A stretch of DNA of 61,061 nucleotides from Bacteroidales bacterium. GTDB lineage: Bacteria > Bacteroidota > Bacteroidia > Bacteroidales > F082. The position numbers and the translations under genes are program-made. The stretch is from assembly GCA_017549605.1 (NCBI GenBank), contig JAFYUH010000137.1, positions 1 through 61,061 of the forward strand. The letters run 5' to 3'. The number at the start of each line of letters is the position of its first letter. The stretch's first letter is position 1. Positions 121 to 53,152 of this stretch are shown here, one piece after another. The notes beneath the pieces were generated by a model that saw nothing but the letters and a program-made list of their open reading frames with translations, was not told the DNA's origin and did no database searches.

Positions 121-127
121 TTATTAA

Positions 128-220
128 GACGCCAAGTCACCAAGTCACCAAGACACCGAGGTTCTTAGTTCAAGGTTCAGAGTTCAAAGTTCAGAGTTCA
201 AAGTTCAAAGTTCAAAGTCC
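128..220. repeat. Adjacent word runs: CACCAAGT-type (128-161) then GTTCA[AG]A heptamers x8 (161-220)
   Basis: Direct reading: 'gacgccaagtcaccaagtcaccaagacaccgagg' followed by 'gttcttagttcaaggttcagagttcaaagttcagagttcaaagttcaaagttcaaagtcc'. Confidence 0.85.
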
Positions 221-290
221 ATCCTGCCGCCTCGGCTAAATAGAGCACTCCACTGCCTGCCTGGGAACAGTCGTCACTACGTGACTTTTT

Positions 291-368
291 AGAATCTCAG
301 AATCTCAGAACTTCAGAACTTCAGAATCTCAGAAAAATTTTGAGATTTTGAGGTTCTGAATTTCTGAT
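291..368. repeat. Hairpin of (A[AT]C[TT]TCAG) 8-mers x5 facing CTGA/TGAGA words, followed by a T-run
   Basis: 'agaatctcagaatctcagaacttcagaacttcagaatctcagaaaaattttgagattttgaggttctgaatttctga' followed by 'ttttttt'. Confidence 0.8.
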
Positions 369-399
369 TTTTTTATAAAAAACCTTTAGCCATTTTTCC

Positions 400-407
400 T
401 ATCTTTG
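400..407 (+). promoter_or_regulatory. Bacteroidota -7 box (TAnnTTTG) upstream of sdaA
   Basis: 'TATCTTTG' lies 27 nt upstream of the ATG. Confidence 0.5.
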
Positions 408-434
408 TAGAGGAAAAATATTTTTCGTTTTTAT

Positions 435-1646
435 ATGAAGACAATAAAAGAGATATATCGTATAGGTCATGGTCCTTCTAGCAGTCACACCATGGCTCCT
501 CGTTTTGCATCGGAGCAGTTCCTTGCTCGTCATCCTGAAGCAGCTCGCTTTGAAGTCACTTTGTATGGCAGTCTGGCCCTCACAGGCAAAGGCCACTTGA
601 CAGACGTCGCTATCATGGAAGTCTTCGGCGATAAGGCTCTTGTAACAATAAACTGGCAGCCTGACATTTTCCTTCCTTATCATCCTAATGGAATGACATT
701 TAAGGCTTTTAACAGTGAAGACGTCATGACAGAAGAATGGACGGTCTACAGCGTCGGCGGCGGTGCTCTTGAAGAAGAAGGCAAGCCTGCAGTGTTGCCT
801 GACATTTATCCTATCACCAAGATGACTGATATCTTGAACTGGTGCGAAGACACCGGCAAGGCTTATTGGGAATATGTCAAAGATGTTGAAAACGACCCTT
901 ATCTCATGGATTATCTTGAAGAGGTATGGCAGACTATGAGTGATGCCGTCGAGCGCGGACTCCAGACCGAAGGCCGTTTGCCTGGTCCTCTCAACCTTCC
1001 TCGTAAGGCTGCTAACTACCACGTCAAGGCGATGGGTTACCAGCATACTCTGAAAAGCAGGGGCTTGGTGTTCTCTTACGCCCTCGCCGTCAGCGAGGAA
1101 AACGCTTCCGGCGGTTTGATAGTGACAGCTCCTACATGCGGTTCATGCGGCGTCTTGCCATCAGTGTTGTATCACTCAGCCAAGGCATACGACATCGCTA
1201 AGCCTCGTATCCTTAACGCCTTGGCAACAGCGGCTCTCGTGGGTAACATCGCCAAGACCAACGCTTCTATCTCAGGTGCGGAAGTAGGATGCCAGGGTGA
1301 AGTCGGCGTTGCATGTGCTATGGCGGCTGCGGCTGTATGCCAGCTCTTCGGTGGCAGCTGTGCTCAGATAGAATACGCCGCTGAGATGGCCCTCGAACAT
1401 CACCTCGGAATGACCTGCGACCCTGTGTGCGGACTCGTGCAGATACCTTGTATAGAACGTAACGCCTTCGCTGCTGCACGCGCCATGGACGCTAACATCT
1501 ATGCAACATATACCGACGGCACCCACAGAGTGTCATACGATAAAGTGGTCGCTACAATGAAAAAGACAGGCCACGATATGCCATTGCTCTACAGAGAGAC
1601 CTCAACAGGAGGATTGGCAAGCGACTATGAACAAATGGATTATTAA
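435..1646 (+). CDS. sdaA: L-serine ammonia-lyase (Fe-S dependent, single-chain)
   Basis: 403-aa ORF. It has the N-terminal 'GHGPSSSHTMAP' motif and Cys-rich 'APTCGSCG' / 'CDPVCGLVQIPCIERN' segments typical of Fe-S L-serine dehydratases. Confidence 0.9.
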   Translation: MKTIKEIYRIGHGPSSSHTMAPRFASEQFLARHPEAARFEVTLYGSLALTGKGHLTDVAIMEVFGDKALVTINWQPDIFLPYHPNGMTFKAFNSEDVMTEEWTVYSVGGGALEEEGKPAVLPDIYPITKMTDILNWCEDTGKAYWEYVKDVENDPYLMDYLEEVWQTMSDAVERGLQTEGRLPGPLNLPRKAANYHVKAMGYQHTLKSRGLVFSYALAVSEENASGGLIVTAPTCGSCGVLPSVLYHSAKAYDIAKPRILNALATAALVGNIAKTNASISGAEVGCQGEVGVACAMAAAAVCQLFGGSCAQIEYAAEMALEHHLGMTCDPVCGLVQIPCIERNAFAAARAMDANIYATYTDGTHRVSYDKVVATMKKTGHDMPLLYRETSTGGLASDYEQMDY

Positions 1647-1742
1647 AAGACACCAAGTCACCAAGTCACCAAGTCACCAAGTCGCCAAGACCCTAAGTTT
1701 TTTTAAACTTGGTGACTCAGAGACTCGGTGTCTTGGTGACTT
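1647..1742 (+). terminator. Long hairpin built from CACCAAGT x4 facing ACTTGGTG-type words, directly after the sdaA stop
   Basis: 'aagacaccaagtcaccaagtcaccaagtcaccaagtcgccaagaccctaag ttttttt aaacttggtgactcagagactcggtgtcttggtgactt'. The arms are largely complementary. Terminator function is inferred from position only. Confidence 0.5.
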
Positions 1743-1754
1743 AAAATTTGAATT

Positions 1755-2380: not shown

Positions 2381-3560
2381 TATTATTAAGCCAATTTCTA
2401 ACAGGTTCGTCATATAGTTTCAAACAGATGTATGCTAATGTGATATTCGTTGCCATGACGAGCAGTACCATCTGCCATGTTTCGCCGAGAGTGTATAACT
2501 CATTATCGATGAGCCATGAGTAGAAGAGATACATCACTGGATAATGTACTATATATAAAGGATAGGAGATGTCTCCTAAGAACTTGCATAACTTAGTGGT
2601 GAAGCCGTTTGTGATGTTTGCTGCTGCGCCGAACCATATTATCGCTGGAAAGACCAATATGATACACGATAATTCATAAATGCCGTTAAGACTGACGCTG
2701 CCCGTCTTCGTGATATAAGGCATAGAGAAAAGAACGAACATCACGATTACTGAAAGCCAAAAAATAGTTTGGTCGCTTAGCTTAGACCCCGTACTCTGAC
2801 TTAGTGTCTCGGTGTCTCGGCGTCTCGGCGTCTTATTAAAATTCCTCGACATTAGCATTCCGAGGGTGAATGGGAATAGCATCCTCAATAATCCTCCGAA
2901 GAAATTGACAGCGTCTAAGGTCCAGCCGATGCCTATCATATCGTATGTGGAGATGTCGAAGACGACGAAGCTTGTCCATAATAATCCAGTCATCACGACT
3001 AAGAATGCCAATCCTTTGTTGGATAGTTTTCTTATAAACAAAGCGTACAATATATTACCGATATATTCAAAGAAAAGCGACCAGCTCGGTCCGTTGAGAG
3101 GATACATCTCCCCATTGCCGCGTACATCGTAAGACGCTCCTGGATAAGCAGGGATGAGAAACATGGCAAGGAAAAACGCTACAAGAATCCAGTGAAATGG
3201 CATCTGTGTGCCGTCCCATCTTACTCCGCCTTGAAGGAGATATGTCGCCAGTCCGATGACCGCGCCCATCACCACCATAGGCTGCAATCTGACAAGACGA
3301 CGCTTGAAGAAGCTCCAGACGTTGACCGTTGACACTGACTGTTGACACAGACTTGGTGACTTCCATCTGTCATCATAAGCATAGCTGATGACGAATCCCG
3401 ACAGCATGAAGAAGAAGTCGACGCCGAGATGTCCGTGGTTGAAAGTCTCTATCATAGTGCCGCCAGCGAAGGCAAAACCTTCAAAGACGTGATACCATAA
3501 AACCATCAGAGCCGCTACACCGCGCAATCCGTCGAGTAATAAGTAATGCTGCTTCTCCAT
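2331..3560 (-). CDS. Acyltransferase family 3 integral membrane protein
   Basis: 409 aa, multi-pass hydrophobic, with the acyltransferase_3-type N-terminus 'LDGLRGVAALMVLWYHV'. It carries two in-frame word-repeat blocks, and its last codons plus stop lie in the TCAGAATC hairpin. Confidence 0.75.
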   Translation of the reverse strand: MEKQHYLLLDGLRGVAALMVLWYHVFEGFAFAGGTMIETFNHGHLGVDFFFMLSGFVISYAYDDRWKSPSLCQQSVSTVNVWSFFKRRLVRLQPMVVMGAVIGLATYLLQGGVRWDGTQMPFHWILVAFFLAMFLIPAYPGASYDVRGNGEMYPLNGPSWSLFFEYIGNILYALFIRKLSNKGLAFLVVMTGLLWTSFVVFDISTYDMIGIGWTLDAVNFFGGLLRMLFPFTLGMLMSRNFNKTPRRRDTETLSQSTGSKLSDQTIFWLSVIVMFVLFSMPYITKTGSVSLNGIYELSCIILVFPAIIWFGAAANITNGFTTKLCKFLGDISYPLYIVHYPVMYLFYSWLIDNELYTLGETWQMVLLVMATNITLAYICLKLYDEPVRNWLNNRISKIQKLKSSEVLRF

Positions 3561-3574
3561 AAAATTTTATTGTT

Positions 3575-3634
3575 AGAAATTCAAAATCTCAGAACCTCAA
3601 AAGTTTTTTTCTGAGATTCTGAGATTCTGAATTT
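3575..3634 (-). terminator. Hairpin of TCAGAA[TC]C words between S8 paralog A stop and the acyltransferase start
   Basis: 'agaaattcaaaatctcagaacctcaaaag ttttttt ctgagattctgagattctgaattt'. The arms are about 22 nt with 2-3 mismatches. Confidence 0.5.
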
Positions 3635-7984: not shown

Positions 7985-8014
7985 GAAAAAAAAGAGATGC
8001 CCAAAGGCATCTCT
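7985..8014 (-). terminator. Canonical rho-independent terminator downstream of S8 paralog B
   Basis: On the minus strand: 'agagatgcc tttg ggcatctct' followed by T8. The stem is a perfect 9 bp. Confidence 0.75.
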
Positions 8015-8042
8015 ATGAGTGTGTTGAATGTGTTAAGGTCGC

Positions 8043-11000
8043 TTATAATATTACTATTTTTTGTGACCTTACTGTATTCTCGTTAATGTTACGTATTACG
8101 TAAGTTGTCTTGTTGAACTTGCTTACATTGACCCTGTTGTCTTCTCCAACGATGTCAGTGGTGTAAACAACTCTACCCATCATATCAATGATTTGAATTC
8201 TGCCTTCAGCCTTGACGATAAGTTCGTCGCCGCTTTGATATACAAACTGACCGTTGTCTGTTGTCTGTTGTCTGTTGTCCACCTTTACGACAAATCGGTT
8301 GTGGGTGTCATTGCTTGTAGCTGTGAAACTGTATTCGTTTTCGATGAGCATATTTGTTTCAATGCCTGTGAAGCGGTCGACCAATGTGACAGTTTCAAAC
8401 TCGCCGTTTATGTCTAAACTGATGCTGTAATTGCCCATTTGTGATGCTACGAATGAGAGCTCTACTTCAGTAACGTTTTCGTCTAAGTTGGCGATGCCGT
8501 AACGTCTGCCGTTATTGGCAACGAATACTGTAGCAATTCCTTCATTGAAGTTTTGCAACTTATCAAAACCTTCTGATTGTCCTGCGAAGTTGATGATTAC
8601 GTTGTCTTTACCAGCATTGCCAGAAGCGATGACATTTATGCTGTTGAATTGTCTGCCGCTTCTTGTTATCTCTTTTTTATGATCGTAAGAGAATGTTGGT
8701 TCTGCTGTAATGGCTTTCACGAAGAATCCGTCACCTGTTGCTATTGTAGTATCTGCAGGCGCATAGATGTAAGCTCCGTTAGTGCCTATTATAGCATAAC
8801 CTGTTGTCAATCCTTCTACTGTAGCTTTTCTCATATCCATATTGAATGGGAATGGGTTTCCGAGAAGGTGGAAGTTGGCGAGAGGTTTTTCTTCATTGTA
8901 GGATATTTCTGTGAAATTGAAATGATCTTTGCTGTAGAGAGAACCTGTCAGTGAGGCTGTAGATTCTGTTTCGTATGAAGCGAGGTAACCACGTCCGTTT
9001 ACGAAATCTTTTTCAAAGTCGGCGTCTATATTGTTGCCTTTTTTATGGTTGTTCCATTTTGTGTCCTCATATTTGTATAAGTCGTATGATCTGGCGGCTT
9101 CGTTGCCTGTAAAGTTCATAACGCTGGAGGTGTTGAATGGAGAAGCTATGAATTGCCAGCCGTCTTTGTTGCTACCCGACCATGATGTCGGATTTACAAT
9201 ATTCATATTGAATGTTGCAAATACGTTCTCGCTGCTTTGGAACAATTGAGCGCCGTCATTGATGATGAGTGATGCAGCGTCTGTGTTTGTCATTGTGCCG
9301 TTTACAGTGAGACGGACACCGCCATCAATTGTCATAGAACCGCTGTTGATGCTTACAGATTCTACAATGATATCACCGCTCGTTATTGTCACATCACCAT
9401 CGATGATGACATCATCTGTTGCTGTTGGGATAGAGCCTTTGCTCCAGTTGTTTGCATCGCTCCATAAACCGATGCCGGTGAATATATTGATAGAAGGATT
9501 TACGGTGACAGTGAATGAGTGAGGGTAAGTTGTTGTTTCTGTATGAGTTGAAATTGATTTTACATTGTAAATAGTGATGTCGTCAACAGCCAAGGCAGCA
9601 TTGTCACCGCAGTCGAAATGTCTGATGGCAACCCAAATGTTTTGACCCTCATAATCTACCAACATTGAAGATTTCAGAGTCATTTTCAAAGAGTTCGAAT
9701 TTTTAGCAAGAGTCCAGGCATCTACTTGTTTGAAAGAATTTACATCGGTATTACTTGTAGTTGATACGAAAACACCAAATTTTTCCACTGCATATTTGGT
9801 TTGATTTGCCATAGAACATACATGAAATTCAAATGTAGTACCATCTGATGGTATGATCTGTTCTGGCATTACTAACCAACGGTCTGGTGTAAGAGTTTTA
9901 TTGCCTTTATTGCAAAAAGACTCGCTGAATACGAAACCGCCAGTAGAATATGATTTATTATAATCATGACTGCTTTGTGTGCTTGAATGATACCAGTCGT
10001 GGTCATCTGCAGTTATAGTAGTGCAGCCTTGTAAATCATTGTCGAATGTATAGCTTTTATTGGAGACGCTTTCACTTATGACTTCATTTTCTACTATGAT
10101 ATTTATTTCAAAGTCTAAATCGTAGTTAGAAGGAATGTCTTCTGCCAATTTTATGCTAAATGAGACTGTTGTTGTTTCTCCAACTGCAATAGAACCAACA
10201 TTGTATGTGCCGTTAATGATGTTGACATATTCGTTGTCACACACTAAAGTCGCTGTTGTTGCGGCAGGTGTGGCTTTTTCACATTTATTAATTAATGTTG
10301 CAGTCAATGTTGCGTTTCCGTTTACAAGATTATCCAAGTTGAATGATTTTACAATCACACCAGTGAGTTTCTTGTCGGTTGTAGCGCAGGTGTTTTCTGA
10401 TAGTTCAGATTCCCCGACTTCGTTGACGGCTGTTACGTTGAAGCAGTATGTTGTCTCGGCTTCAAGGTTTTCAATGAGATATGTTGTTTCAGTCAGCTCT
10501 ATGTCGAGTGTTTCTGTGCCGCGATAGATATTGTAGCTCAATGCATTTTCAACGGCGTCCCATCTCAAGATTATAGATGATTCACCGTCAGCTGTCGCTG
10601 TCACTACAGGAGTTGCTGGTGCTTTTGGAGCTTCTAATGTTGTAGCGCAGGCGTCTTCAGATTTTTCAGACTCACCGATTTCGTTGACTGCTGTTACGTT
10701 GAAGCAGTATGTCGTTTCGGCTTCAAGGTTTTCTATGATGTATGTTGTTTCAGTCAGCTCTACAGCGAGTGTTTCTGTACCTCGATAGATATTGTAGCTC
10801 AATGCATTTTCAACAGCGTCCCAAGTCAAGACCACTTCTGATTCGCTTGTAGCTTCTGCTGTCGCTACAGGTGCTGTAGGTCTTTCTTTGAATGTTGTAG
10901 CATAAGCTTTTTCTGATTTCTCAGACTCGCCGATTTTGTTGACTGCTGTAATGCTGAAGCAGTATGTTGTCTCGGCTTCAAGATTTTCTACAGTATATGT

Positions 11001-14000
11001 TGTCTTGCTTAGTCCTGTCGCAATCAATTTTGTATCTTGATAAACGTTATAGCTTGCGGCTTCTTTGACATTGTCCCATTTCAAGACTATTTCTGATTCG
11101 CTTATCGCTTCTGCTCTTAGATTTGTTGGAGTTTTTATTGATGTAGGTTCTGATGTGGTTTCGCAGACTTCTTCAGAAAATCCTGATTCTCCAGAACTTG
11201 TGACAGTCGTTACAGCGTAGCAATATTGTGTCTCATAAGAAAGTTCGGTATCGACGTAAGCAGGTTCTGTCACAGTAGCGACTTTCTGTCCGTTGCGATA
11301 TACGTTATATTTGTTTACGTTATTGACGGCATTCCATGACAATGATATCTTTAATTCATCTGCTAATGTAGCTGTGATGTTTTTAACTTCAGGCAAGTTT
11401 ATTGTAGAACTTGCTATTACATTAAAATAGTAAGGGTCATCGAGACTATAAGTGGAAACGTGTTTCGTATTTACGATTACGTTTGAGAAAGCGATGTCAT
11501 CAATGTTTAAAGCATCAACCCCGAGTCCGCCGTCAGCTTGATAAGGGTCGTCCCATTCTTCATTTGTAAAGAAGTGACGTATGGCAATATAGATTTCCTG
11601 ACCTGCGTAATCGCTTAAGTCAACGGTATATTGCTTCCATGTTGTGCTTGTTGAACTTTCTGTTATTTTCCATTCTTCTATTGTGGTAAAGTCATTGGCA
11701 GAGGTGTTGCCAGTTGTTGACACTGCCAAACCAAAATGTTCCTTATAATATGCAGTGTAATGAGCACGTGCGTAGAAACTTACCTTACTGTTTTCGGTGA
11801 TTTTGACTTTTGCAGGAGATACGAGATAGTTGTCGATAGGATATGTGTATTGTATCATCTTAAGACCAGAATGACTCATAAGGTGTCCTTTGCCAGTGTG
11901 AGACTCGAATGGTTTTTTTTCGACGCTGTTAGCGTTAGAACTATGATTCCAAGGAGTTTTAATGTTATTGTTGCTTGCATTGAAACTGGTCCATCCTTGC
12001 ATATCGTTTTCGAATTCATAAACATAATCTTTTGGTTCTATGTTTTCTGAATATGTTTCAAGGAAGAAGTCAAATTCAAAACCGTCTTTAGGTTCTTTGG
12101 TTTCGATGGTAAATGTTCCTGTACCAGTTTCGTTTACATCCAATGGACTGATTGTGGTTACATCATTGATTAAAGTTAGGTGTTTCAAACTAGATGAAAT
12201 AGACACGAGTTTGAGTGTTATTGGACCTGAGAAGTCTGCAGTTCCATCGTTAACCATAGTGACTCTGATGTCGGTTTTTGTATTTGGCTTTACTACACCA
12301 GGACTTACACTTTGGAAGGTGAGTTTAGGACTGGCAGTGATGTTGATATAGAACACATCATCCCATTTGTAATTGTCGCTTGTTGTCGTTACGGTGAAAG
12401 TAGCAGTATGTCCGTTTGGCGTGGCAGGATTAACATCAAGTTCAAAATATAATGTTTTGGTGTTGTTTACACCGATAGTTCCTGTTGTTTGTGAAGGGTT
12501 TACGATCGTTACGTATGGGTCGTTTGCCAAAGACAATGTCACTGTTGTATTTTCATCGCTTGGACCATTGCCTTCGTTTTTCAATGTTATTCCGAGAGTG
12601 CTGTTTCCTGCAGATATTGTTGCTGGAGAGAAGGTGTTGAGTTTTACATAAGGATGTTCGATAACTTCAGTGATGCCGTTGACAGCAGCGAGAGCGTCGA
12701 CGATACCAGCTCCGATTATATTGTTTTTTGTTGCAGGTTTTGAAGATGCTGATTCTTCAATTATCTGTGATATCTGAGCAGGAGTGAGTGCTGAATTCTT
12801 TTCCAACATAAGCGCGATTACACCGGCAACGCATGGTGTTGCTTGTGATGTTCCGCTCTTGACGGCATTGTCGTTATTGCCGTTGTGTTTAGAAGAATAG
12901 ATGTAATAACCTGGAGCTGAGATGTCAGGACGGATGAGACCCATTGAAGCGCCACTGTTGTATGGATAGTCGTTGTAAGAAGTTCCTTCCCATGTTGAAG
13001 GACCGCGTGATGACTCGTTGAGGTCGTGAGCGCCGACGCAGATGACGCTTGAGTTGCCGCCTTTGAGTGTCTGGTTAGGGTTTGTCCAAGGTGCAGGACA
13101 TGCTGCTGGGTAGTCGACGTTGTCAGGTGCTCCGTAAGTGTCGCCATCGTTACCTGCTGCTGCACAGACGACAACGCCTGCACTTAACACATTGTCGAAA
13201 GCCTTGCGGATCTCTTCTTTCTGTGCTGTGGTTAACTGACTGTTCTTGAAACCTAATGACATGCTTAAAACGTCAGCGCCGTTTTCAACAGCGAACTGGA
13301 CGCCGCTCAGCATCTGTGACACTGAACCGCCACCAACACGGTTGATAATCTTTACGGTCATAAGGGATGCGTCTGGAGCAATGCCAGTGGTGTTGCCAGA
13401 AGTGCCGTCGCCACAGACGATACCAGCACAGTGTGTTCCGTGACCAAATTCGTCGGTGATGTCGCTATTGCCTCCGTCGAAGTTCCATCCGTTGACGTAG
13501 GTGTCAGGAGTACCGTCATTGTTAGTGTCGATATGACCTGACCAGAGATGGTCTTTTAGGTCGATGTGTTCAGTGTTTGTTCCAGAGTCCAACACCGCAA
13601 CAACAACATTTTTGCCTGTGTAGCCTTGTGCCCAGACATCGTCAGCATTGACGCTTACTACGTGAGCAAAAGGACCTCTTACGTCAGCAGGTTTTGCCTC
13701 GATGCTTTTCATCTGTTCTGGAGAAATCATCTGAATCTCCTTGTCATAGCCGATGATCTTTACGTCAGGATGAGAAGATAATTTATAGATTACATCTTTA
13801 GAAGCCTTACAGCTAATTGTGTTGGCGATCCATAGGTTGCGGATGTCGGAGACTTTGCCGTTTAATTTTTCTGCTTCTAAAATGTTTAAGACATCAGACT
13901 GAACATTTCCTGAATAAGTCTTAAGTTCATTGATGACAAAATCTTTCTTTTCTGATTTTGTAGAAGCGTTTCTGCTTGCTTGCTTAAGTTTGTTTGAATC

Positions 14001-14156: not shown

Positions 14157-14182
14157 TAAAAATAAATTGAAATTAAACTATA

Positions 14183-14224
14183 AATAGGAGATGAGAATTG
14201 TTATATAATTCCTAACTCCTATTT
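14183..14224 (-). terminator. Hairpin downstream of S8 paralog C stop
   Basis: 'aaataggagatgagaatt gttatat aattcctaactcctattt'. The arms are imperfect and AT-rich, and contain AGGAG-type words. Confidence 0.4.
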
Positions 14225-14241
14225 ATATTTTTATAAAATGC

Positions 14242-18391: not shown

Positions 18392-18474
18392 AGCTGTTGG
18401 CTATTGGCTGTTAGTTAAAAGTCAACAGACAACTTTCAACCTTTTCCGTTGTCCGTTGTCTGTTGTCCGTTGTC
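18392..18474. repeat. GTTGTC[CT] heptamer run x4 facing GTCAACAGACAAC, plus CTGTTGG/CTATTGG words
   Basis: 'agctgttggctattggctgttagttaaaagtcaacagacaactttcaaccttttccgttgtccgttgtctgttgtccgttgtc'. It lies between the leuS stop and the paralog C start. Confidence 0.8.
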
Positions 18475-32004: not shown

Positions 32005-32057
32005 AAGACGCATCAATGTGTGTTTATTTTTTATAAGTAACATTGACACGTCTCTAC
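32005..32057. repeat. Palindromic element PE-2, inverted copy downstream of the helicase gene
   Basis: 'aagacgcatcaatgt gtgtttattttttataagta acattgacacgtctctac'. Its reverse complement aligns with 29512..29561 at roughly 80% identity by eye, including the loop. Confidence 0.65.
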
Positions 32058-36135: not shown

Positions 36136-36143
36136 TTTTTTTT

Positions 36144-36211
36144 AATTCATAATTCACAATTCACAATGCATAATCAGTAAAATTATGAATTATGCATTAT
36201 GAATTATGCAT
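36144..36211. repeat. Hairpin of AATTCA[TC]A words facing TATGAAT/TATGCAT heptamers x4
   Basis: 'aattcataattcacaattcacaatgcataat cagtaaa attatgaattatgcattatgaattatgcatt'. Confidence 0.8.
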
Positions 36212-36214
36212 TGT

Positions 36215-37204
36215 TTATATAAATCTTCTTTCAACTAAGTCGTTTAATTTCTTATAAGCTTCAGAGGTGCAATCCCATTGGAATTCAATCTGAAGCTCGC
36301 TCATATAAGTCTTGGCTCCCAATAAAGTGGAGAAGCTGTTCAATGATCTTATGGACTTGTTATATTTCTCCATGCTTCCGCCAAACAATTCATTGAGGAA
36401 TAAGAACTTGTCGTTGATGCCTATTGCTGTTATCAAGTCTGACACAGGCTTGCGTTGCAGACGAGCGGCGAGACTCTTGTCCTCGCTTTGTTCCAGCATG
36501 TCGCCAAGTGTTGGGATATTCTCTCTTATTATACGATAAGCCCTGATGCCAGAGTCCTCTTCTTTTTCAGAAACTTCCTTTTTGGAATCAACGGCAGTAT
36601 CGCTTAATGAATCAGTGATGGGATCTTCTTCTTCTTCTTCAGTATCAGAAACTTCATCTTCTTCAAAGTCCTCAACTCCTAACTCCTCACTCCTCACTCC
36701 TAACTCTTCAGACGCCACAGGAGTGACGTCTCTACATTCTTCAATTCCTAATTCCTCACTCCTAACTCCTAACTCCTCAGATGCCACAGGAGTGACGTCT
36801 CTACGTTCTTCAATTCCTAACTCTTCTTTGGTGAAATCCCAAACCATATCAGCTTCCTCATCGCTTTCCTCTTCATTTCCAAAGTCAATGAGTTCATTGT
36901 CATCATTATCTTCATCTTCAAACTCCTCAACTCCTAACACCTCATTCCTAACTCCTAATTCTTCAGACGCCACAGGAGTGACGTCTCTACGTTCTTCAAT
37001 TCCTAACTCCTCATTCCTAACTCCTAATTCAATGGAACAAATCGTGTCGTATAATTTTCTTGTATTTTCCATCAATAAATCGACATCAAGTTGATTCATC
37101 GGCATCTCTTTTCTAATCAGAAAATTAACCTGATTAGACATCTTGTTTAGCAATGTTTCTATTTCAAAAATTATACGGTCTTGCTGATTATTTCGTTGTT
37201 CCAT
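36215..37204 (-). CDS. Hypothetical acidic protein carrying three in-frame palindromic-element copies
   Basis: 329-aa ORF with ordinary-looking N- and C-terminal parts. The central third consists of 'EELGIEE(R/C)RDVTPVASEELGVR(N/S)E' x3, encoded by the same DNA as the intergenic element at 29461..29511. No family was recognised. Confidence 0.55.
   Translation of the reverse strand: MEQRNNQQDRIIFEIETLLNKMSNQVNFLIRKEMPMNQLDVDLLMENTRKLYDTICSIELGVRNEELGIEERRDVTPVASEELGVRNEVLGVEEFEDEDNDDNELIDFGNEEESDEEADMVWDFTKEELGIEERRDVTPVASEELGVRSEELGIEECRDVTPVASEELGVRSEELGVEDFEEDEVSDTEEEEEDPITDSLSDTAVDSKKEVSEKEEDSGIRAYRIIRENIPTLGDMLEQSEDKSLAARLQRKPVSDLITAIGINDKFLFLNELFGGSMEKYNKSIRSLNSFSTLLGAKTYMSELQIEFQWDCTSEAYKKLNDLVERRFI
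36670..37030. repeat. Three in-CDS copies of [CCTAACT]n + 'agacgccacaggagtgacgtctctac' + TTCCTAA words
   Basis: The cores lie at 36710..36735, 36779..36804 (one substitution, 'agatgcc') and 36965..36990. Confidence 0.85.
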
Positions 37205-38741: not shown

Positions 38742-38864
38742 AGGCTACTAAAGGCAAAGGACTAAAGACAAATGTTGGGGAAAACTGTTGTCTGTTGACT
38801 TTTTTTAAAAAAAGTTTGAACAAAATTAACATTAGAAATATTTAATACTCAAAATTACATTCAT

Positions 38865-39926: not shown

Positions 39927-40009
39927 ACTTTGAACCTTGAACTCTGAGCCCTGAACTTTGAACTAAGAACTTAAGGCTCAATGCTCAAAGCTCAAAGCTC
40001 AAGGTTCTC
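39927..40009. repeat. Hairpin of TTGAAC/CTGAGC words facing GCTCAA[AG] words after ansB
   Basis: 'ctttgaaccttgaactctgagccctgaactttgaactaagaacttaaggctcaatgctcaaagctcaaagctcaaggttctc'. Confidence 0.75.
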
Positions 40010-40026
40010 AAAAAAAAAGTGCTATT

Positions 40027-41223: not shown

Positions 41224-41267
41224 TGCTAAGCAATGAGCCCTGAGCAATGGGCGTCTCATAAAATGAA

Positions 41268-41300
41268 AAGGCTAAAGTGTAAAAACTCTAGCCTTTTTTA
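41268..41300. terminator. Bidirectional hairpin terminator between convergent porin and acyltransferase genes
   Basis: 'aaaaggcta aagtgtaaaaactc tagcctttttt'. The stem is flanked by an A-run and a T-run, and nested inside outer TGAGC/GCTCA word arms. Confidence 0.6.
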
Positions 41301-41321
41301 TTACTATTATTTGCTCGTTGC

Positions 41322-42693: not shown

Positions 42694-43836
42694 ATGTTGA
42701 AAATTAATAAGATTTTAAATTACTTGATAGTACTTTCCATATTGTTTTTAATAGGTAAAAGCATTTATGATAATAATATAGAGAAGCAAAAACTGAATCA
42801 GCCTAAGTATGAATTCTCCATGTCGTTGGATGAGACGAGAACTGTTTTCCCTTCAGCCGACAGCATAGCGCAGGATGCTGTTTCTTCATATATTGTTTTT
42901 GATAAGCAAGATGTCGTTGGAAAGGTTGTCAACACTTCTCCATATAGTGACAATATTTTCGGCTATAACAGCATCACGCCTCTTACTATTTATATCGATA
43001 AAAATGATAGGATCGTCAAGGTGGAACTTTGTCCTAACAGAGAGTCGCGTGGATATATTAATAATGTAATCAAGAGCGGATTCTTGGAGTCGTGGGACGG
43101 CCTTACTGTTGAAGAGGCGTTGACACATCATGTCGATGCGGTGAGCGGCAGCACTTATTCCTCGACTGCTATTTCTCAGTCGTTGCAGGTCAGGATGCAG
43201 GAACTGACATCTCAGAAAGCGAGACTTCATTCCTGGGATTGGATGCTGTTCGTTAAGCAGATGTGTGTTCTCGCAGTTACTATATTGGCATTGATATGTT
43301 TCTTCAATCCTAAAAAGACCAAGACATTAAGACGCGTGACATTGCTGCTTTCGATCTTGATATTAGGATTCTGGAGCAACTCGCTTCTTTCCTTGGCGAT
43401 GTTTTATAATTGGATTACCAATGGCGTTTCCTTGACGATGCAGTGGGCTGTAATATTCATCGCTGCCGTCTCGATAATCCTTCCTTTGGTGACGAAGAAA
43501 TCATTCTATTGTCAATATTTATGTCCTTTCGGCGCGGTGCAGGAATTTGTCGGGATGATACCAGTGAAGAAGATAACTGTCTCAGCAAAGCTGTATAAAT
43601 TATTCTCTGTTTTAAGAAAGGTGATATTGTTAACACTTATAGTGTTGCTGGCTTTGGGTTTTGGTCTCGATCTTTCTATGACTGAACCATTCAGCGTCTT
43701 CAGTTATCAGTCGATAATATTTGAAGTGGCATTGCTTGCTGCAGTCATAGTCATAGCTTCAATATTCATCAAGAAACCTTGGTGTAATTATCTGTGTCCT
43801 ACGGGAACTGTTTTAAAATTAGGAATGAGGAATTAG
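42694..43836 (+). CDS. FMN-binding domain / ferredoxin-type (NosR/NapH-like) membrane protein
   Basis: 380 aa. It has an FMN_bind-like 'VDAVSGSTYSSTAI' segment, several TM helices and two CxxxCP motifs ('CQYLCPFG', 'CNYLCPTG'). Confidence 0.6.
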   Translation: MLKINKILNYLIVLSILFLIGKSIYDNNIEKQKLNQPKYEFSMSLDETRTVFPSADSIAQDAVSSYIVFDKQDVVGKVVNTSPYSDNIFGYNSITPLTIYIDKNDRIVKVELCPNRESRGYINNVIKSGFLESWDGLTVEEALTHHVDAVSGSTYSSTAISQSLQVRMQELTSQKARLHSWDWMLFVKQMCVLAVTILALICFFNPKKTKTLRRVTLLLSILILGFWSNSLLSLAMFYNWITNGVSLTMQWAVIFIAAVSIILPLVTKKSFYCQYLCPFGAVQEFVGMIPVKKITVSAKLYKLFSVLRKVILLTLIVLLALGFGLDLSMTEPFSVFSYQSIIFEVALLAAVIVIASIFIKKPWCNYLCPTGTVLKLGMRN

Positions 43837-43893
43837 GAATGAGAAATGAATATTCTCTCTAAAACTCCTAACTCCTAATTCCTAACTCCTAAT
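43817..43893. repeat. Hairpin of TTAGGAAT/GAGGAAT words facing CTCCTAA[CT]T words; the left arm encodes the last codons of CDS 42694..43836
   Basis: 'aattaggaatgaggaattaggaatgagaaatgaatattctctctaaaactcctaactcctaattcctaactcctaatt'. Confidence 0.8.
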
Positions 43894-46040: not shown

Positions 46041-46057
46041 AGTATTGTATGTATTTT

Positions 46058-46088
46058 GATTATGAATTATGCATTATGAATTATGAAC
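46058..46088. repeat. TATGAAT/TATGCAT heptamer run overlapping the PcrB-like gene stop
   Basis: 'gattatgaattatgcattatgaattatgaac', the same words as at 36181..36211. Confidence 0.8.
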
Positions 46089-46802: not shown

Positions 46803-46880
46803 GTTTATAAGAGTTGAAATAGTTTACGAAGATAAGATTTTTTTCTTTATGAAAAGAGAATTATTTTTTAATTTTGCACC

Positions 46881-48016: not shown

Positions 48017-48095
48017 GTACAGACGTGTCAATGATGTATTTTTTATCAAAATCAGATTACTTTATTTATAAACTACATCATTGACGTGTCTCTAC
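48017..48095. mobile_element. 79-bp MITE/REP-like palindromic element PE-1, copy b (opposite orientation)
   Basis: 'gtacagacgtgtcaatgatgta ... tacatcattgacgtgtctctac'. It matches the reverse complement of 21442..21520 at 76 of 79 positions. Confidence 0.6.
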
Positions 48096-48946: not shown

Positions 48947-48986
48947 GGACAAAGTCTGTTGTCTGTTGACTGTTGTCCGTTGACTT
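48947..48986. repeat. GTTGTC/GTTGAC heptamer words after CDS 48227..48946
   Basis: 'ggacaaagtctgttgtctgttgactgttgtccgttgactt'. Confidence 0.75.
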
Positions 48987-49022
48987 AAAAAAAGAAAATA
49001 TTAACATCAAATAAATAACAAA

Positions 49023-50654
49023 ATGAAAATTAGAAACTTAGTAATGATTTTAACTTTAGGTGCAGTTACAATGAGTTGCGCTGATTCTAAAAAACAAGAA
49101 ACAAACTATGCTGACCTTACAAAGCAATATGCAAAGGTTCAGTTGACTTCAGACATCACTCATTTGTCAGACAATGAGAAACAAATGTTGAACTATCTCT
49201 ATGAAATCGGTAATATCATGGATGATATTTTCTGGACACAACAATTCGGTGGCGACAAAGAAGCTTTCTTGAACTCAATCCAAGATCCAGACGCTCGTCT
49301 CTTCGCTGAAATCAACTATGGTCCATGGAACCACTTCGACAACCTCGCTTCTTTCCTTCCTGAATACGGCGAAATGCCAGCAGGCGCAGGTTTCTATCCA
49401 GCTGACATGACAAAAGAAGAATTCGAAGCATGGGACAACCCTGACAAGACAAGTCTCTACACTTTAATCAAACGCGATGAAAACGGTCAGTTACAAGCAG
49501 TTTGGTTCCACGACGCTTACGCTGAACAAATCAACAGAGTCGCTGAATTGTTGAACAAGGCTGCTGACCTCGCTGGCGACAAAGAATTTGCTGACTACTT
49601 ACGCCTCAGAGCTAAGGCTGTCTTGACAGACGATTATTTCGAAAGCGATATGGCTTGGATGGACGTCCGTAACAATAACGTTGACTTCGTTGTTGGTCCA
49701 ATCGAAAATTATGTTGACGCTCTCTATGGCTACAAAGCAGCTCACGAAGCATTCATTTTGATTAAAGACCAAGCATGGAGCAAACAACTCGCTCGCTATG
49801 CAGAACTTCTTCCTTTGTTACAAACACAACTTCCTGTAGCAGAAGAATATAAACAAGAAAAACCAGGTGCTGACGCTGACCTCGCTGTTTACGATGCTGT
49901 ATTCTACGGCGGCGACTGCAACATGGCTGGCAAGACTATCGCTATCAACTTGCCTAACGACGAACAAGTTCAACTTCAAAAAGGAACTCGTAAGTTACAA
50001 CTTAAAAACGCTATGAAAGCTAAGTTCGACCATATCTTGGCTCCTATCTCAGACGTCCTCATGACTCCTGAATCACGCGCTAACGTTAAATTCGAAGCTT
50101 TCTTCGCTAACGTTATGTTCCACGAAGTCGCTCACGGCATGGGTATCAAAAACACTCTCGATGGTAAAGGTACAGTACGCCACGCTCTTAAAGAACAATA
50201 TTCAGGTATCGAAGAAGCAAAAGCTGACATCTTGGGTCTTTACTTGATTACAAAACTTCACGAAATGGGCGAGTATAACAACTCAACATTGGAAGAAAAC
50301 TATACAACATTCATGGCAGGTATCTTCCGTTCAGTACGTTTTGGTGCTTCAAGTGCTCATGGTAAGGCTAATATGTTAACTTTCAACTTCTTGGAAAAAG
50401 AAGGCGCTTTCACACGCAATGAAGAAGGCTTATATGCTATCAACTTCGAAAATATGAAAGTGGCTGTTGCTAAACTCGGCGGCGAAATCCTCAAGGCTCA
50501 AGGCGACGGTAACTATGAATTCGTAAAAGAATGGATCGCTACAGAAGGCGTTATCAAGCCAACTCTCCAAGCTGACCTCGACAAAGTCAACGGCATGGGC
50601 ATCCCAACAGACATCTATTATGAAATGTCTCCAGAACTTCTTATTGGAAGATGA
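49023..50654 (+). CDS. M49-like (dipeptidyl-peptidase III-type) zinc peptidase, predicted lipoprotein
   Basis: 543 aa. A lipobox-like 'GAVTMSC' follows the signal peptide. Pentapeptide zinc motif 'HEVAHG' and, downstream, 'EEAKAD' match the second M49 motif (EExxAE/D). Confidence 0.6.
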   Translation: MKIRNLVMILTLGAVTMSCADSKKQETNYADLTKQYAKVQLTSDITHLSDNEKQMLNYLYEIGNIMDDIFWTQQFGGDKEAFLNSIQDPDARLFAEINYGPWNHFDNLASFLPEYGEMPAGAGFYPADMTKEEFEAWDNPDKTSLYTLIKRDENGQLQAVWFHDAYAEQINRVAELLNKAADLAGDKEFADYLRLRAKAVLTDDYFESDMAWMDVRNNNVDFVVGPIENYVDALYGYKAAHEAFILIKDQAWSKQLARYAELLPLLQTQLPVAEEYKQEKPGADADLAVYDAVFYGGDCNMAGKTIAINLPNDEQVQLQKGTRKLQLKNAMKAKFDHILAPISDVLMTPESRANVKFEAFFANVMFHEVAHGMGIKNTLDGKGTVRHALKEQYSGIEEAKADILGLYLITKLHEMGEYNNSTLEENYTTFMAGIFRSVRFGASSAHGKANMLTFNFLEKEGAFTRNEEGLYAINFENMKVAVAKLGGEILKAQGDGNYEFVKEWIATEGVIKPTLQADLDKVNGMGIPTDIYYEMSPELLIGR

Positions 50655-50765
50655 AAATTGAAATTTGAAAACTGAAATTAATTAGCCGTGAGCTATGGGC
50701 AGTGAGTCGTGAGCATATTGTGTTCAAAGCTCAAAACTCAAAGCTCATGGCTCAAAGCATAAAAA
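50655..50765. repeat. Three word families in series: TTGAAA[AT], GTGAGC, GCTCAAA
   Basis: 'aaattgaaatttgaaaactgaaattaattagccgtgagctatgggcagtgagtcgtgagcatattgtgttcaaagctcaaaactcaaagctcatggctcaaagc'. Confidence 0.75.
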
Positions 50766-50802
50766 ATAATCTAAATAATAACATTCTAAATTATACAAAA
50801 AA

Positions 50803-53004
50803 ATGAAAAAAACTTTCTTATTAGTAGCCCTCGTTATTTTCTCATTAGTGGGCAAAGTACACGCTGACGAAGGTATGTGGCTTCCTATGTTCGTTGAGCG
50901 TTTGAATTATGTTGACATGGAAAAGATGGGTCTTCAACTTACTCCTGAAGAACTCTATAGCATCAACAACAGCAGCTTGAAAGACGCTATCGTTGGCTTG
51001 TCAAACGGCGACAGACCACGTGGTTTCTTCTGCACAGGCGAAATCGTTTCTCAAAACAGCCTTATGTTCACTAACCACCACTGCGGTTACGGTTCAATCC
51101 AAAAACTCAGCACTGTTGAACATGACTATTTAACAGACGGTTTCTGGGCAAAAGACTTCAGCGAAGAACTTCCAGCTGAAGGTATCTCAGCTTCTTTCTT
51201 GGTACGTATGGAAGACGTTACAGAACAAGTTTTCAGTGTTTTGAACGACACAATGACATGGGCAGAACGTAATGCTGCTATCGCTGCTAAATCTGCAGAA
51301 CTCGAAGCTGCTGCTTCAGAAGATGGCAAATACAACCCAATCATCAAAGGTTTCTTCGAAGGTAACGAATACTATATGTTCGTATATCAAGTATATACAG
51401 ACGTTCGTCTCGTAGGTACTCCTCCTTCATCAATCGGTAAGTTCGGTGGTGACACTGACAACTGGATGTGGCCTCGTCACACTGGCGACTTCTCAATCTT
51501 CCGCGTTTACGCTGACGCTGAAGGCAATCCGGCTGCTTACTCACCAGAAAACAAACCTCTCACTCCAAAACATCATCTTCCAGTTAGCTTAGACGGCGTT
51601 CAACAAGATGACTTCACAATGATCTGGGGTTTCCCTGGTACAACAAATCGTTACCTTACATCATACGGCGTTGACTATAACGTAGAAACATTCTACCCAA
51701 TCATCCACGATATCTTCAAACTCCAAACAGACATCATGGACGAATTCATGCAAAAAGACGCTTCTGTCAACATTATGTACGCTGACGACAAAGCTGGTCT
51801 TGCTAACACATGGAAAAACTTCGAAGGTCAAATGTTGATGCTTCGTAAGAATAAAGTCGCTGAAAGAAAAGCTGAACTCGAAGCTCAATTCACAGAATGG
51901 GTTAACGCTGATCCAGCTCGCGTTGAAGAATACGGCAACGTATTGAACACATTAGCTGAAAACTACAACACTCTTTCAGAGTTAAGCGCATCAGTTTATT
52001 TCCCTAACTTCGTTTCACAAACAGGCGCTATCGCTATCTCAGCAGAATTCGCTCAATATGTAGCTGCTGCTCAAAGCAAAGATAAAGAAGCTGTCGCTGC
52101 TGCAGAAGAAGCTCTTAAAGCTATCGACGTTGATGCATTCTTCGCTGAAACATACAAACCATTAGAAGACAAAATGTTGGTTGAAATGTTGAAATTATAT
52201 TACAACACATTCAACGCTGAAGTAAATCCTGACTTCTACAACTTGGTTGAAAAACAATATAAAGGTGATGTTGTTGCTTTAGCTAACGCTATCTTGGAAA
52301 AATCTATCTTCGCAACAGCAGAATCAATCAATGCTTTCATCGCAAAACCTAATGCTAAGAAAGTTGAAAAAGATGCAGCTTACGTTGTATTCAACGCAAT
52401 GGTAAATCACATGGTAAGCGGTCTCGCTCCATTCCGCGCAGCAAACCAAGTTATTGCTGAAAACAACCACATGTTCGTTAAAGGCTTACGCGAATTCTAT
52501 GCTGAAACACAACCAGAAAAATCTTTATATCCAGACGCTAACTCATCATTACGTATGACTTACGGTTCTGTTAAAGATTACCAACCAGCTGACGCTGTTT
52601 CTTACGACTACATCTGTACAGCTAACGGTATCCTTGAAAAATATGTTCCTGGAGACTATGAATTCGACGTTCCACAAAGACTCCTCGACCTCATCGAAGC
52701 TAAAGACTTCGGTCAATATGCTAACGAAGACGGTGAATTGATCGTTTGCTTCCTTTCAACAAACGACATCACTGGCGGTAACTCAGGTAGTCCAATCATG
52801 AACAGCAGAGGCGAACTCATCGGTCTTGCATTCGACGGCAACTGGGAAGCTATGAGCGGCGACATCAACTTCGAACCAAGATTACAACGCACAATCAACG
52901 TTGACGCTCGTTACGTATTGTTCGTAATCGACAAGTTCGCTGGCGCAACAAACCTCATCGAAGAGTTGACAATCGTTAAAAGCGAACCAACAGTTGAAGA
53001 ATAA
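50803..53004 (+). CDS. S46 family dipeptidyl-peptidase (DPP7/DPP11-like)
   Basis: 733 aa. The mature N-terminus 'DEGMWLP' follows the signal peptide. It also has 'TNHHCGY' (catalytic His), 'GGNSGSP' (catalytic Ser) and a helical insert. Confidence 0.88.
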   Translation: MKKTFLLVALVIFSLVGKVHADEGMWLPMFVERLNYVDMEKMGLQLTPEELYSINNSSLKDAIVGLSNGDRPRGFFCTGEIVSQNSLMFTNHHCGYGSIQKLSTVEHDYLTDGFWAKDFSEELPAEGISASFLVRMEDVTEQVFSVLNDTMTWAERNAAIAAKSAELEAAASEDGKYNPIIKGFFEGNEYYMFVYQVYTDVRLVGTPPSSIGKFGGDTDNWMWPRHTGDFSIFRVYADAEGNPAAYSPENKPLTPKHHLPVSLDGVQQDDFTMIWGFPGTTNRYLTSYGVDYNVETFYPIIHDIFKLQTDIMDEFMQKDASVNIMYADDKAGLANTWKNFEGQMLMLRKNKVAERKAELEAQFTEWVNADPARVEEYGNVLNTLAENYNTLSELSASVYFPNFVSQTGAIAISAEFAQYVAAAQSKDKEAVAAAEEALKAIDVDAFFAETYKPLEDKMLVEMLKLYYNTFNAEVNPDFYNLVEKQYKGDVVALANAILEKSIFATAESINAFIAKPNAKKVEKDAAYVVFNAMVNHMVSGLAPFRAANQVIAENNHMFVKGLREFYAETQPEKSLYPDANSSLRMTYGSVKDYQPADAVSYDYICTANGILEKYVPGDYEFDVPQRLLDLIEAKDFGQYANEDGELIVCFLSTNDITGGNSGSPIMNSRGELIGLAFDGNWEAMSGDINFEPRLQRTINVDARYVLFVIDKFAGATNLIEELTIVKSEPTVEE

Positions 53005-53041
53005 TTGAAAATTGAAAACTGAAAGTTGAAAATTGAAAGTT
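53005..53041. repeat. TTGAAA[AG] heptamer run x5 after the S46 peptidase stop
   Basis: 'ttgaaaattgaaaactgaaagttgaaaattgaaagtt'. Confidence 0.8.
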
Positions 53042-53068
53042 AAGGACGCAGAATGCGTCCTTTTTTTT
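53042..53068 (+). terminator. Canonical rho-independent terminator after the S46 peptidase gene
   Basis: 'aaggacgca gaa tgcgtcctt' followed by a T-run. Confidence 0.8.
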
Positions 53069-53116
53069 ATTTCTCGCAGAGACGCAAAGGAACGCAAAGT
53101 TTATACAAACACCAAA

Positions 53117-53152
53117 AGACTGTTGTCCGTAGTCCGTTGACTGTTGTCTTTT
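53117..53152. repeat. GTTGTCC/GTTGAC word block downstream of the M1 peptidase gene
   Basis: 'agactgttgtccgtagtccgttgactgttgtctttt'. Confidence 0.65.

Follow-up and report, generated by a model that had tools for sequence, protein, structure and literature searches.

The stretch of DNA analysed here, hereafter the window, comprises 61,061 nt (61 kb; 42% GC) of a Bacteroidales bacterium (contig JAFYUH010000137.1, positions 1 to 61,061), with genes for a serine dehydratase, a LigT protein, an acyltransferase, a 2037-aa secreted protease, a kinase and an asparaginase, among others. The spacers between the genes, and in places the genes themselves, carry short units of 7 or 8 nt (termed words below) repeated in tandem, many of which are joined with related, approximately complementary words in hairpins and are mixed with palindromes headed by GTAG. 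The other loci and contigs that were compared are designated by L numbers.

Periodic arrays in the window and its lineage

Some 45 short arrays with a period of 7 or 8 nt were detected in the window by Tandem Repeats Finder. With a strict call based on a lag-p self-match scan, and with 60 dinucleotide-preserving shuffles as the control, 11 arrays of period 7 and six of period 8 were obtained, with none at periods 5, 6 and 9-13, and the shuffled windows contained no array at any of periods 7-13. An earlier account of this DNA, made from its letters only and called the sequence-only reading below, had reported such words, and the 17 strict arrays against none in the shuffles bear this out. Twelve of the 17 are intergenic, though intergenic DNA makes up 6% of the window. 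The units of 7 nt are repeated head to tail in at least about three copies, far above chance, with arrays of period 8 besides, and at least eight dispersed, mainly non-coding word families can be told apart. The eight families listed in the sequence-only reading were all found at their positions, exactly or a few bases off, except that the run at 32071, listed there as TTAGGAG/CTCCTAA of period 7, is a period-8 TCAAATCC run; the orthologous spacer carries CTCCTAA in L095 and L096.

By its serine dehydratase gene, the window belongs to an uncultured lineage of Bacteroidales, the best matches of that gene (99%, 98%, 94% and 90% protein identity) being metagenome-assembled genomes (MAGs) from water-buffalo cecum and other animal guts. 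Arrays of periods 7 and 8 together number 2.8 per 10 kb in the window, 5.1 in its closest relatives, 2.0 in two relatives of ~80% identity and 2.3 in eight related genomes with an identical epimerase; in 1.28 Mb of sequence from 74 other genomes, most of them of Bacteroidales, the figure is 0.16. The words are thus enriched in the lineage, with a density in the clade of the window that is 17- to 30-fold higher than in the other genomes, where period 7 still leads with 18 arrays and every other period has 0-4. This enrichment, together with the lead of period 7 elsewhere, points to a trait strongly amplified in one clade over a weak order-wide background. That the arrays are artefacts of short-read metagenome assembly has next to no probability: every sequence compared here is indeed a short-read assembly, which is all that speaks for it, and matching arrays and hairpins recur in assemblies made independently, with several assemblers, from many samples; a 3.7-kb stretch shared by L003 and the window is 100% identical, arrays included, and the arrays are shorter than one sequencing read.

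Hairpins, palindromes and runs inside genes

The spacers were folded and compared with shuffles. Of the 19 spacers that contain words, 15 fold far more stably than their shuffles (z scores of the minimum free energy, MFE, between -3.3 and -7.9; none of 60 shuffles equally stable); the five divergent promoter spacers of the window reach only -0.7 to -2.5. The earlier description of the words as paired with approximate complements in hairpins holds for these stable folds and does not extend to the many arrays that are direct-only, in the window those at 128-157, 161-222, 21391-21437, 46048-46087, 48954-48985 and 53003-53038. In many hairpins the paired words are related without being identical (YTTGAAC, for example, pairs with GCTCAAA), so that mismatches occur at regular spacing.

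At the left end of the window (strands are given where one was assigned), an inverted pair of GTAG-headed palindromes (25-48 and 98-120), similar to repetitive extragenic palindromic (REP) sequences, is directly followed by a word run, in a segment (19-166) that recurs in L001. Three copies of CACCAAGT (128-157) and seven to eight of GTTCA[AG]A (161-222) lie on the plus strand of this divergent spacer with no complementary arm nearby, and are followed at 289-373 (plus strand) by a hairpin of five TCAGAATC with GAGATTYT and then T7, which has related copies at several non-orthologous sites. The block of REP doublet, CACCAAGT and GTTCAAA is bracketed by a direct repeat of ~47 nt, CACTCCAC..CCTGCCTGGGAAC.GTCGTCACTACGTGACTTTTTA (L003 8197-8245, window 245-291); to the left of the block lies a strain-variable island with a GNAT/small-ORF pair and with ORF6N and DUF1016 genes.

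A hairpin of five CACCAAGT with ACTYGGTG (1649-1745, plus strand; z -7.9) starts 3 nt past the serine dehydratase stop codon. Between convergent genes, the open reading frame (ORF) of the acyltransferase runs into the TCAGAATC hairpin at 2311-2385, which is missing in L005, L006 and L010, where the acyltransferase has 395 aa against 409 aa. This hairpin has its initial 22 nt (TTAGAAATTCAAAATCTCAGAA) in common with one of the same family at 3577-3634 (z -4.5), which varies among strains in 8-nt steps. Further hairpins are a short one of TAGGAG/CTCCTA downstream of a minus-strand gene (14179-14227; z -6.3), those of GACAAC/GTTGTCY (18423-18474; z -4.2), GTGAGC/GCTCACG (23565-23632; z -4.8) and ATTCA[TC]A/TATGMAT (36143-36212; z -4.3), that of YTTGAAC/GCTCAAA (39927-40010, plus strand; z -3.5), which extends from a stop codon to an A9 run and has strain-variable arm lengths, and that of TTAGGAA/CTCCTAA between convergent genes (43817-43892; z -5.6), whose 5' arm overlaps an ORF end. 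GAGC-type words stand on either side of a canonical terminator at 41225-41321 (z -4.4). On the plus strand, a TTGAAAA run (50652-50679) precedes a GTGAGC/GCTCAAA hairpin (50685-50758; z -5.3), at a site where L106 has a GTAG palindrome instead, and a GACTAAA/GTTGTCT hairpin with a partly deleted 3' arm, followed by T7A7, is left as a remnant at 38766-38812, relatives having perfect stems of 26-27 bp followed by T7-8. Direct runs are formed by TATGAAT across a 33-nt spacer and both neighbouring gene ends (46048-46087; z +0.8, no hairpin), and by GTTGTCY/GTTGACT at 48954-48985 (plus strand), where L093 has eight TTAGGAR units. At 53003-53150, a run of five TTGAAAA is followed by a canonical terminator (53041-53069) and GTTGTCC-type words (53117-53150).

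The motif GTAGAGACG... has 27 matches in the window, with 9.7 expected. The palindromes that it heads (GTAGAGACG...CGTCTCTAC) occur in a 26-nt and a ~50-80-nt form with stems of 9-18 bp, and are located at 25-120, 21442-21520, 29461-29562, 32005-32057, 36710-36990 and 48017-48095. They have the GTAG/CGTC head and the imperfect palindrome of 20-40 nt that characterize REP sequences, which the word hairpins do not, and they form inverted doublets, namely the pair at 25-48 and 98-120 and the elements at 21442-21520 and 48017-48095 with GTAG/CTAC at both ends. All of these palindromes directly abut a word run, which makes the spacers mosaics similar to bacterial interspersed mosaic elements (BIMEs). 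Thus, a TTGAAAA run with GTCAACA-type words (21391-21440) abuts the 79-nt palindrome at 21442-21520; the mosaic at 29461-29580 (plus strand) consists of a 26-nt GTAG REP (29461-29486), a TTAGGAR run, a GTAG palindrome (29512-29562) and a second TTAGGAG run, which abuts the next start codon; the palindrome at 32005-32057 continues into the TCAAATCC run up to 32105, relatives having the CTCCTAA run; and that at 48017-48095 is followed by GTCAG/CTGAC-type words up to 48130. No REP-associated tyrosine transposase (RAYT/Y1) was found among the genes called in ~300 kb of fetched loci.

Arrays also lie inside ORFs, at 2804-2833, 3323-3362, 8253-8279, 14342-14376, 21637-21671, 23739-23774 and 36669-37030; those at 2804, 3323, 8253, 14342 and 36669 are assigned to the minus strand. 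In the acyltransferase gene, the run at 2804-2833 is of the CACCGAGA type on the sense strand, a stop-free orientation, and the GTTGAC/CTTGGTGA word stretch at 3323-3362 shows a 24-nt in-frame indel relative to L005, L006 and L010. Four GACAACA units at 8253-8279 encode VDNRQQTTDNGQ ahead of the secretion-tail domain of the 2037-aa protease. A CACCAAGT-type run of about four units in the C-terminal sorting domain of the type IX secretion system (T9SS) at 14342-14376 recurs at 21637-21671 and 23739-23774, and in all three domains it encodes the loop HQVTE[ST]PSHQE in a stop-free sense orientation. At 36669-37030, three in-frame modules, each consisting of a TTAGGAG-type run and a 26-nt GTAG REP, encode ELGVRNEELGIEERRDVTPVASE in an acidic linker; their number varies among strains, giving proteins of 272-333 aa, and variant units avoid stop codons. 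Indeed, in-ORF runs either have an orientation that is stop-free in every frame or contain variant units where a pure run would make a stop codon. Between the few strains available, the differences within ORFs preserve the frame (24 nt, 69-nt modules) or are absent, and no frame-shifting change of unit number, as in phase variation, was found among these few strains.

Two side observations concern the proteins with such runs. In the conserved hypothetical protein encoded at 36215-37204 (minus strand), the N- and C-terminal domains are conserved and the acidic linker is hypervariable; in this species, the linker has absorbed one to three modules in-frame. The protein has a length of 272-333 aa in the strains and 305-374 aa in related species. 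In the T9SS tails (14342, 21637 and 23739), the gain or loss of one 8-nt unit would frameshift the sorting signal, a possible on/off switch; phase variation of these runs was rejected for want of frame-shifting alleles in the few strains available.

With respect to gene ends, the count of about 17 word-bearing spacers among the 27 longer than 50 bp was reproduced under the gene model used here. The accompanying statement that each of them includes a gene 3' end fails at 1-434, which is part of a 616-nt divergent spacer in L003, and the statement that the five divergent spacers are free of words is correct for the window and does not carry over to relatives, which have arrays in 46803-46880 and 55532-55616. 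Across the lineage, the array density per kb is 5.3 in tandem, 3.5 in convergent and 1.8 in divergent spacers, so that the 3' bias is a tendency, about two- to three-fold, and not an absolute rule. The hairpins start at or a few bases from stop codons, and sometimes supply the stop codon themselves. A few genes of the window have canonical terminators, in which T8 follows a GC-rich stem (for example at 7993-8017, 41265-41300 and 53041-53069), and most other transcription-unit ends have word hairpins or palindromes at the terminator position. In the relatives L099 and L110, the alleles of spacer 38742 are textbook terminators with long stems and T7-8. Past several hairpins or runs, the sense strand has 7-9 A in a row rather than T, immediately ahead of the next gene (36136-36143, 38800-38813, 40011-40019 and 48987-48993).

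Replacement and dispersal of hairpins among relatives

The lineage is abundant in animal-gut metagenomes, which allows each spacer to be compared among dozens of nearly identical strains; orthologous spacers were drawn from loci encoding exactly identical neighbouring proteins. Copy number proved to be polymorphic among relatives, as had been anticipated, in unit steps of 7, 8, 14 and 16 nt. The alleles of spacer 29410-29580 measure 171, 185, 199, 213, 227 and 241 nt, the 14-nt step corresponding to two alternating units, and other orthologous spacers differ in length by 8 or 16 nt. The arms vary independently, one L010 allele having ~10 units in the 3' arm against four in the 5' arm. At the end of the kinase gene, GACAAAAGGCTAAGG (29395-29409), which includes the stop codon, is expanded ~4-fold just past the stop in two strains, for example L093, and L005, which lacks the 2311 hairpin, has a two-copy run including the LigT stop codon, given as AACTTTAGAACTTTAG / AACTTTAG. 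As judged from these alleles, units are evidently gained and lost in the manner of slippage.

Whole hairpins are exchanged at fixed sites. In the SDH-LigT spacer, the hairpin is of CACCAAGT in the window, of CAATAAGT/ATAGACTC in L001, L005, L006 and L010, of TTAGGAA/CTCCTAA in L012 and of ATGCATA/TATGAAT in L013, and all four versions fold (z -4.3 to -6.5). Downstream of the asparaginase gene (39924 spacer), L098 carries an ATGCATA/TATGAAT hairpin exactly between the stop codon and the A-run, and the hairpin of the 36136 spacer is exchanged for GAGC and CTTGGTGA words in L098 and six other loci. The genes flanking the swapped alleles diverge by 2-5% in L098 and L001, by 5-8% in L012 and by 18% in L013, which places hairpin replacement on a subspecies-to-species timescale. 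In spacer 46803-46880, a GTAG palindrome with a TTTCAAC run is present as a block in L094 and L106 only, and arrays are missing at many orthologous sites among the relatives.

Near-identical elements are also found at sites that are not orthologous. The hairpin downstream of asparaginase in L098 and the ATGCATA hairpin downstream of SDH in L013 are 87% identical over the full 77 nt, loop and order of variant units included; the palindromes at 21442-21520 and 48017-48095 are 96% identical over 79 nt; window segment 19-166, with the palindrome pair and the CACCAAGT run, is 99.3% identical over 148 nt to the non-orthologous segment 7318-7465 of L001; and pieces of 41-43 nt of the TCAGAATC hairpin are 100% identical at two other sites of L005, which has no hairpin at the orthologous site. 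The 202 non-identical arrays of the lineage fall into 35 word clusters, of which the top ten hold 140 arrays, and clusters are common to different species. The sequence-only reading had argued from the recurrence of words at distant loci that local slippage is insufficient, and the near-identical elements, the hairpin swaps and the shared vocabulary sustain this argument: slippage alone is inadequate for near-identical distant copies and a clustered vocabulary. Dispersal of whole hairpins or modules is shown as an outcome, for which candidate mechanisms are considered below.

In its strict form, the contrary explanation holds that the arrays are purely local microsatellites evolving by slippage, that shared words arise by convergence or biased slippage and that nothing is mobile. 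It would account for the unit-step polymorphism seen everywhere, for the independent variation of the arms and for the local seeds with a stop codon that are expanded in some strains, and it is in line with the account of Mrazek (2007) given in PMC4679880 and PMC4692102, according to which heptanucleotides predominate among the long simple-sequence repeats of many bacteria, with slippage of the polymerase as the suggested cause. We regard it as unlikely, given four unrelated word hairpins in one spacer among close relatives, near-identical hairpins with the same loop and order of variant units at non-orthologous sites, the share of ten word families in the arrays and the presence or absence of a REP-plus-word module as a block.

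The retention of hairpin potential through word replacement, together with the limited vocabulary, could also mean that the words are selected sites or modules for a lineage-specific RNA- or DNA-binding factor, with selection and not mobility maintaining the vocabulary and the hairpins; TAACTGA repeats (PMC4679880) and the heptamers of Nostoc (bioRxiv 10.1101/2022.06.06.494920) have been suggested to bind proteins. This seems quite improbable, as at least eight unrelated words and two unit lengths would require many factors, as the arrays are hypervariable, often direct-only and absent from many orthologous sites, and as they also occur in coding regions, other genes of the window being served by canonical terminators.

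Transposons are found in or beside some of the arrays. In L012, a 385-nt miniature element (11880-12264) with 28-bp inverted ends lies inside a TCAGAA-type hairpin and has an 8-bp target duplication, AAAATTTC, which is exactly one array unit long. Related miniature or full elements are located in or beside word arrays in L109 (17850-18308), L007 (~100-212) and L199 (844-2006), and a clean 8-bp duplication, TGTTTTTA, is present at L225 (364-1732). The full-length element of ~1.2-1.4 kb encodes a DDE transposase (weak Mutator/IS66/IS1595 matches), and its miniature derivatives measure 385-459 nt. A metagenome scan for the end TTGCCAAAAATRGTTGG of this MITE (miniature inverted-repeat transposable element) gave 120 matches, mostly due to chance with so short a pattern, of which 22 have an extended inverted repeat. 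The MITE with its 8-bp duplications is an element distinct from the word hairpins, which show neither duplications nor fixed ends at presence/absence or swap boundaries. The same duplications suggest a further scheme, in which the unit is the staggered cut of a transposase and the arrays grow by accretion of 7-8-bp target-site duplications, both copies of which stay behind when an inserted element or its miniature derivative departs, and are then re-targeted; the DDE element and its derivatives do make 8-bp duplications in L012 and L225, elements do lie in or beside arrays in L012, L109, L007 and L199, and in L012 the duplication equals one unit. It is nevertheless very improbable: there are four cases only, all at AT-rich sites near terminators, which the element also prefers in other taxa that are free of arrays, and the 7-nt units are left unaccounted for; no element with a 7-bp duplication was seen among the loci compared; and GC-containing words such as CACCAAGT are unlike the targets. 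To our knowledge, moreover, excision that leaves both target duplications behind is not established in bacteria.

Known repeat classes and a proposed origin of the arrays

Heptamer tandem repeats have been known since 1990. The short tandemly repeated repetitive (STRR) sequences of cyanobacteria were reportedly described in that year by Mazel et al. Elhai et al. are said to have described in 2008 small dispersed mobile repeats of Nostoc that are associated with hairpins, are single units of 21-27 nt and not tandem, and include different families at equivalent positions in conserved intergenic contexts.

In filamentous cyanobacteria, STRR sequences have repeats of 7 bp and can fold into intergenic hairpins, for which a part in the stability or termination of transcripts has been proposed (PMC2670836). 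The GGGAATC / GGGGAYT arrays of Xanthomonas and Nostoc vary in length between close strains and occasionally form inverted pairs (PMC4692102), Beggiatoaceae, cyanobacteria and five Bacteroidetes carry arrays of TAACTGA (PMC4679880), and the TTTTGAA arrays of Nostoc contain the same word as TTGAAAA (bioRxiv 10.1101/2022.06.06.494920). REP sequences, BIMEs and REP doublets forming hairpins (REPINs) are GTAG-tagged palindromes with stem-loops and inverted doublets (PMC3733652, PMC3116915). The view of the sequence-only reading that the repeats are not of a described class is therefore abandoned, since heptamer hairpins are known as STRR sequences, inverted pairs are known in Xanthomonas and Nostoc and the palindromes fit the REP class.

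The likeness to STRR sequences extends to tandem units of 7 nt, to several unrelated units in one genome, to a mostly intergenic, hairpin-forming location close to gene 3' ends, to variation between strains and to the one word in common with Nostoc (TTTTGAA / TTGAAAA). The host, however, is a gut Bacteroidales and not a heterocystous cyanobacterium, a substantial share of the units have 8 nt, and the overlap with the canonical STRR units is incidental (TTGAAAA and CAACAGT at 21415-21437). In addition, the present data document hairpins that are exchanged at fixed sites and repeats that lie in-frame in protein loops, and no account of either for STRR sequences was found in the accessible papers. 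The single-word heptamer repeats (GGGAATC, TAACTGA) are similar in their period of 7, intergenic location, patchy phylogeny, 7-nt strain steps and occasional inverted pairs; these studies each concern one word, mostly upstream of start codons or forming G-quadruplexes, whereas here many words coexist and are commonly paired as hairpins after stop codons. REP sequences and BIMEs are likewise small dispersed extragenic hairpins at gene ends that form mosaics and inverted doublets, with occasional in-frame copies and with termini that supply stop codons, but the word hairpins have no GTAG head or fixed sequence and are internally periodic. Rickettsia palindromic elements, as far as they are cited in PMC3733652, resemble the present repeats as palindromic modules that lie in-frame in genes and are tolerated in loops or linkers, and differ from them as non-periodic elements of 100-150 nt in an obligate intracellular host.

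Integron attC sites were rejected on inspection, as the hairpin sequences lack the core boxes RYYYAAC / GTTRRRY and are flanked by housekeeping genes of either orientation; pairs of DNA-uptake sequences and CRISPR-like arrays were rejected on sequence features and gene context. No Rfam family matched anywhere in the window at gathering thresholds, and a search of the literature on Prevotella and Bacteroidales for repeats like these gave nothing relevant.

Similar arrays are found in a further set of contigs. A scan of IMG/VR for (AACTCCT)x3 and (CACCAAGT)x3 gave 34 contigs, several of which, of high GC content (56-68%) and predicted to be viral (L133, L132, L136, L146, L127, L113 and L125), contain periods 7 and 8 almost exclusively, with many words and with complementary pairs that form hairpins; L133 has 24 arrays in 14 kb. 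Their words include TTAGGAG/CTCCTAA, GGATTTT/AAAATCC, GGAGACAA/TTGTCTCC and GGGGATT, a sharing that is partly due to ascertainment for those words with which the contigs were searched.

The arrays belong to a described class, to which the present data add a substantial share of 8-nt units, the swapping of hairpins at fixed sites, the in-frame occupation of loops and the association with GTAG palindromes. With moderate confidence, we consider them a lineage-wide population of small non-coding repeats with tandem arms of 7-8-nt units and GTAG palindromes mixed in, a Bacteroidales counterpart of the STRR/heptanucleotide class that is shaped by unit slippage, the copying of whole hairpins and a selection filter. 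In the first process, whole units are gained or lost within each arm, independently of the other arm, most simply by slippage during replication or by unequal exchange; amplification of each arm from a short imperfect seed is suggested by the mismatches that recur at regular distances along the stems. In the second, whole hairpins or composite modules would be copied elsewhere, mostly between a stop codon and the next gene, with one word hairpin replacing another on a timescale of 2-5% nucleotide divergence, and the copying agent could be a RAYT-type transposase specific for single strands or hairpins, or ectopic recombination between arrays. The repeats would then persist where they do little harm, that is, after stop codons and in protein loops and acidic linkers, being under-represented in promoter spacers, and inside ORFs only with a stop-free orientation or variant units.

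At gene ends, the word hairpins probably act as stem-loops at the 3' ends of transcripts, in RNA stabilization, processing or termination, a role suggested by the hairpin potential that outlasts word replacement and by the hairpins that fill the terminator position. Alternatively, they would be tolerated selfish or mutational by-products under the selection filter, a reading that accounts no less well for the 3' bias, for the stop-free orientation of runs in ORFs and for the placement in protein loops.

Several observations weigh against this picture of mobile hairpins with a role in transcript ends. The word hairpins showed no target-site duplication or defined ends, no transposase was found for them, and their mobility is judged from its outcomes; import of whole spacers from diverged lineages by homologous recombination may contribute, and is inseparable from replacement in situ; and no datum accounts for the unit length of 7 or 8 nt. 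Within 110 nt, a minority of the lineage arrays (~17-33%) have a clean tandem partner of reverse-complement sequence, and the idea that each array is half of a hairpin was dropped. By eye, one of ~10 clear word hairpins of the window (289-373) is followed by a T-run, and at least five T in the 9 nt past the stem are found for 7% of the word hairpins, compared with 19% of the others, in a crude automatic scan of whole-spacer MFE domains, in which weak outer pairs shift the stem ends and which serves as a rough indicator. Most word hairpins thus do not seem to be canonical terminators with a stem and a U-tract, and to call them terminators at most gene 3' ends would be an overstatement, the more so as the 3' bias is a tendency.

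The patchy occurrence of such arrays across Bacteroidales, cyanobacteria and the high-GC contigs might also reflect a dedicated enzyme, of the HUH/RAYT type or a staggered-cut transposase, that writes or copies 7-8-nt arrays at hairpins. We think this distinctly unlikely; if it were true, the near-exclusive periods 7-8 and the words common to different phyla would be the footprint of one mechanism, possibly transferred horizontally, and not of generic slippage. For the repeat population proposed above, the strain comparisons already reveal slippage, whole-hairpin replacement and block insertion, which makes the origin and mobility of the arrays testable with public data. The hairpins may determine the 3' ends of numerous transcripts in this uncultured clade of the gut, and the hypervariable spacers are useful as strain markers, with extended or invaded ORF ends as a hazard for annotation.

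Two features of the window lie apart from the words. The gene of the 2037-aa secreted protease contains a tandem repeat of 261 nt (10378-11115; ~2.4-2.8 copies, 78-82% identity), which probably encodes repeated fibronectin-type domains. The 268-nt word-free 'spacer' at 57632-57899 folds unusually well (z -4.1), and relatives have an annotated 60-aa ORF there, in some an OAD-gamma gene, so that this stretch of the window may be coding.

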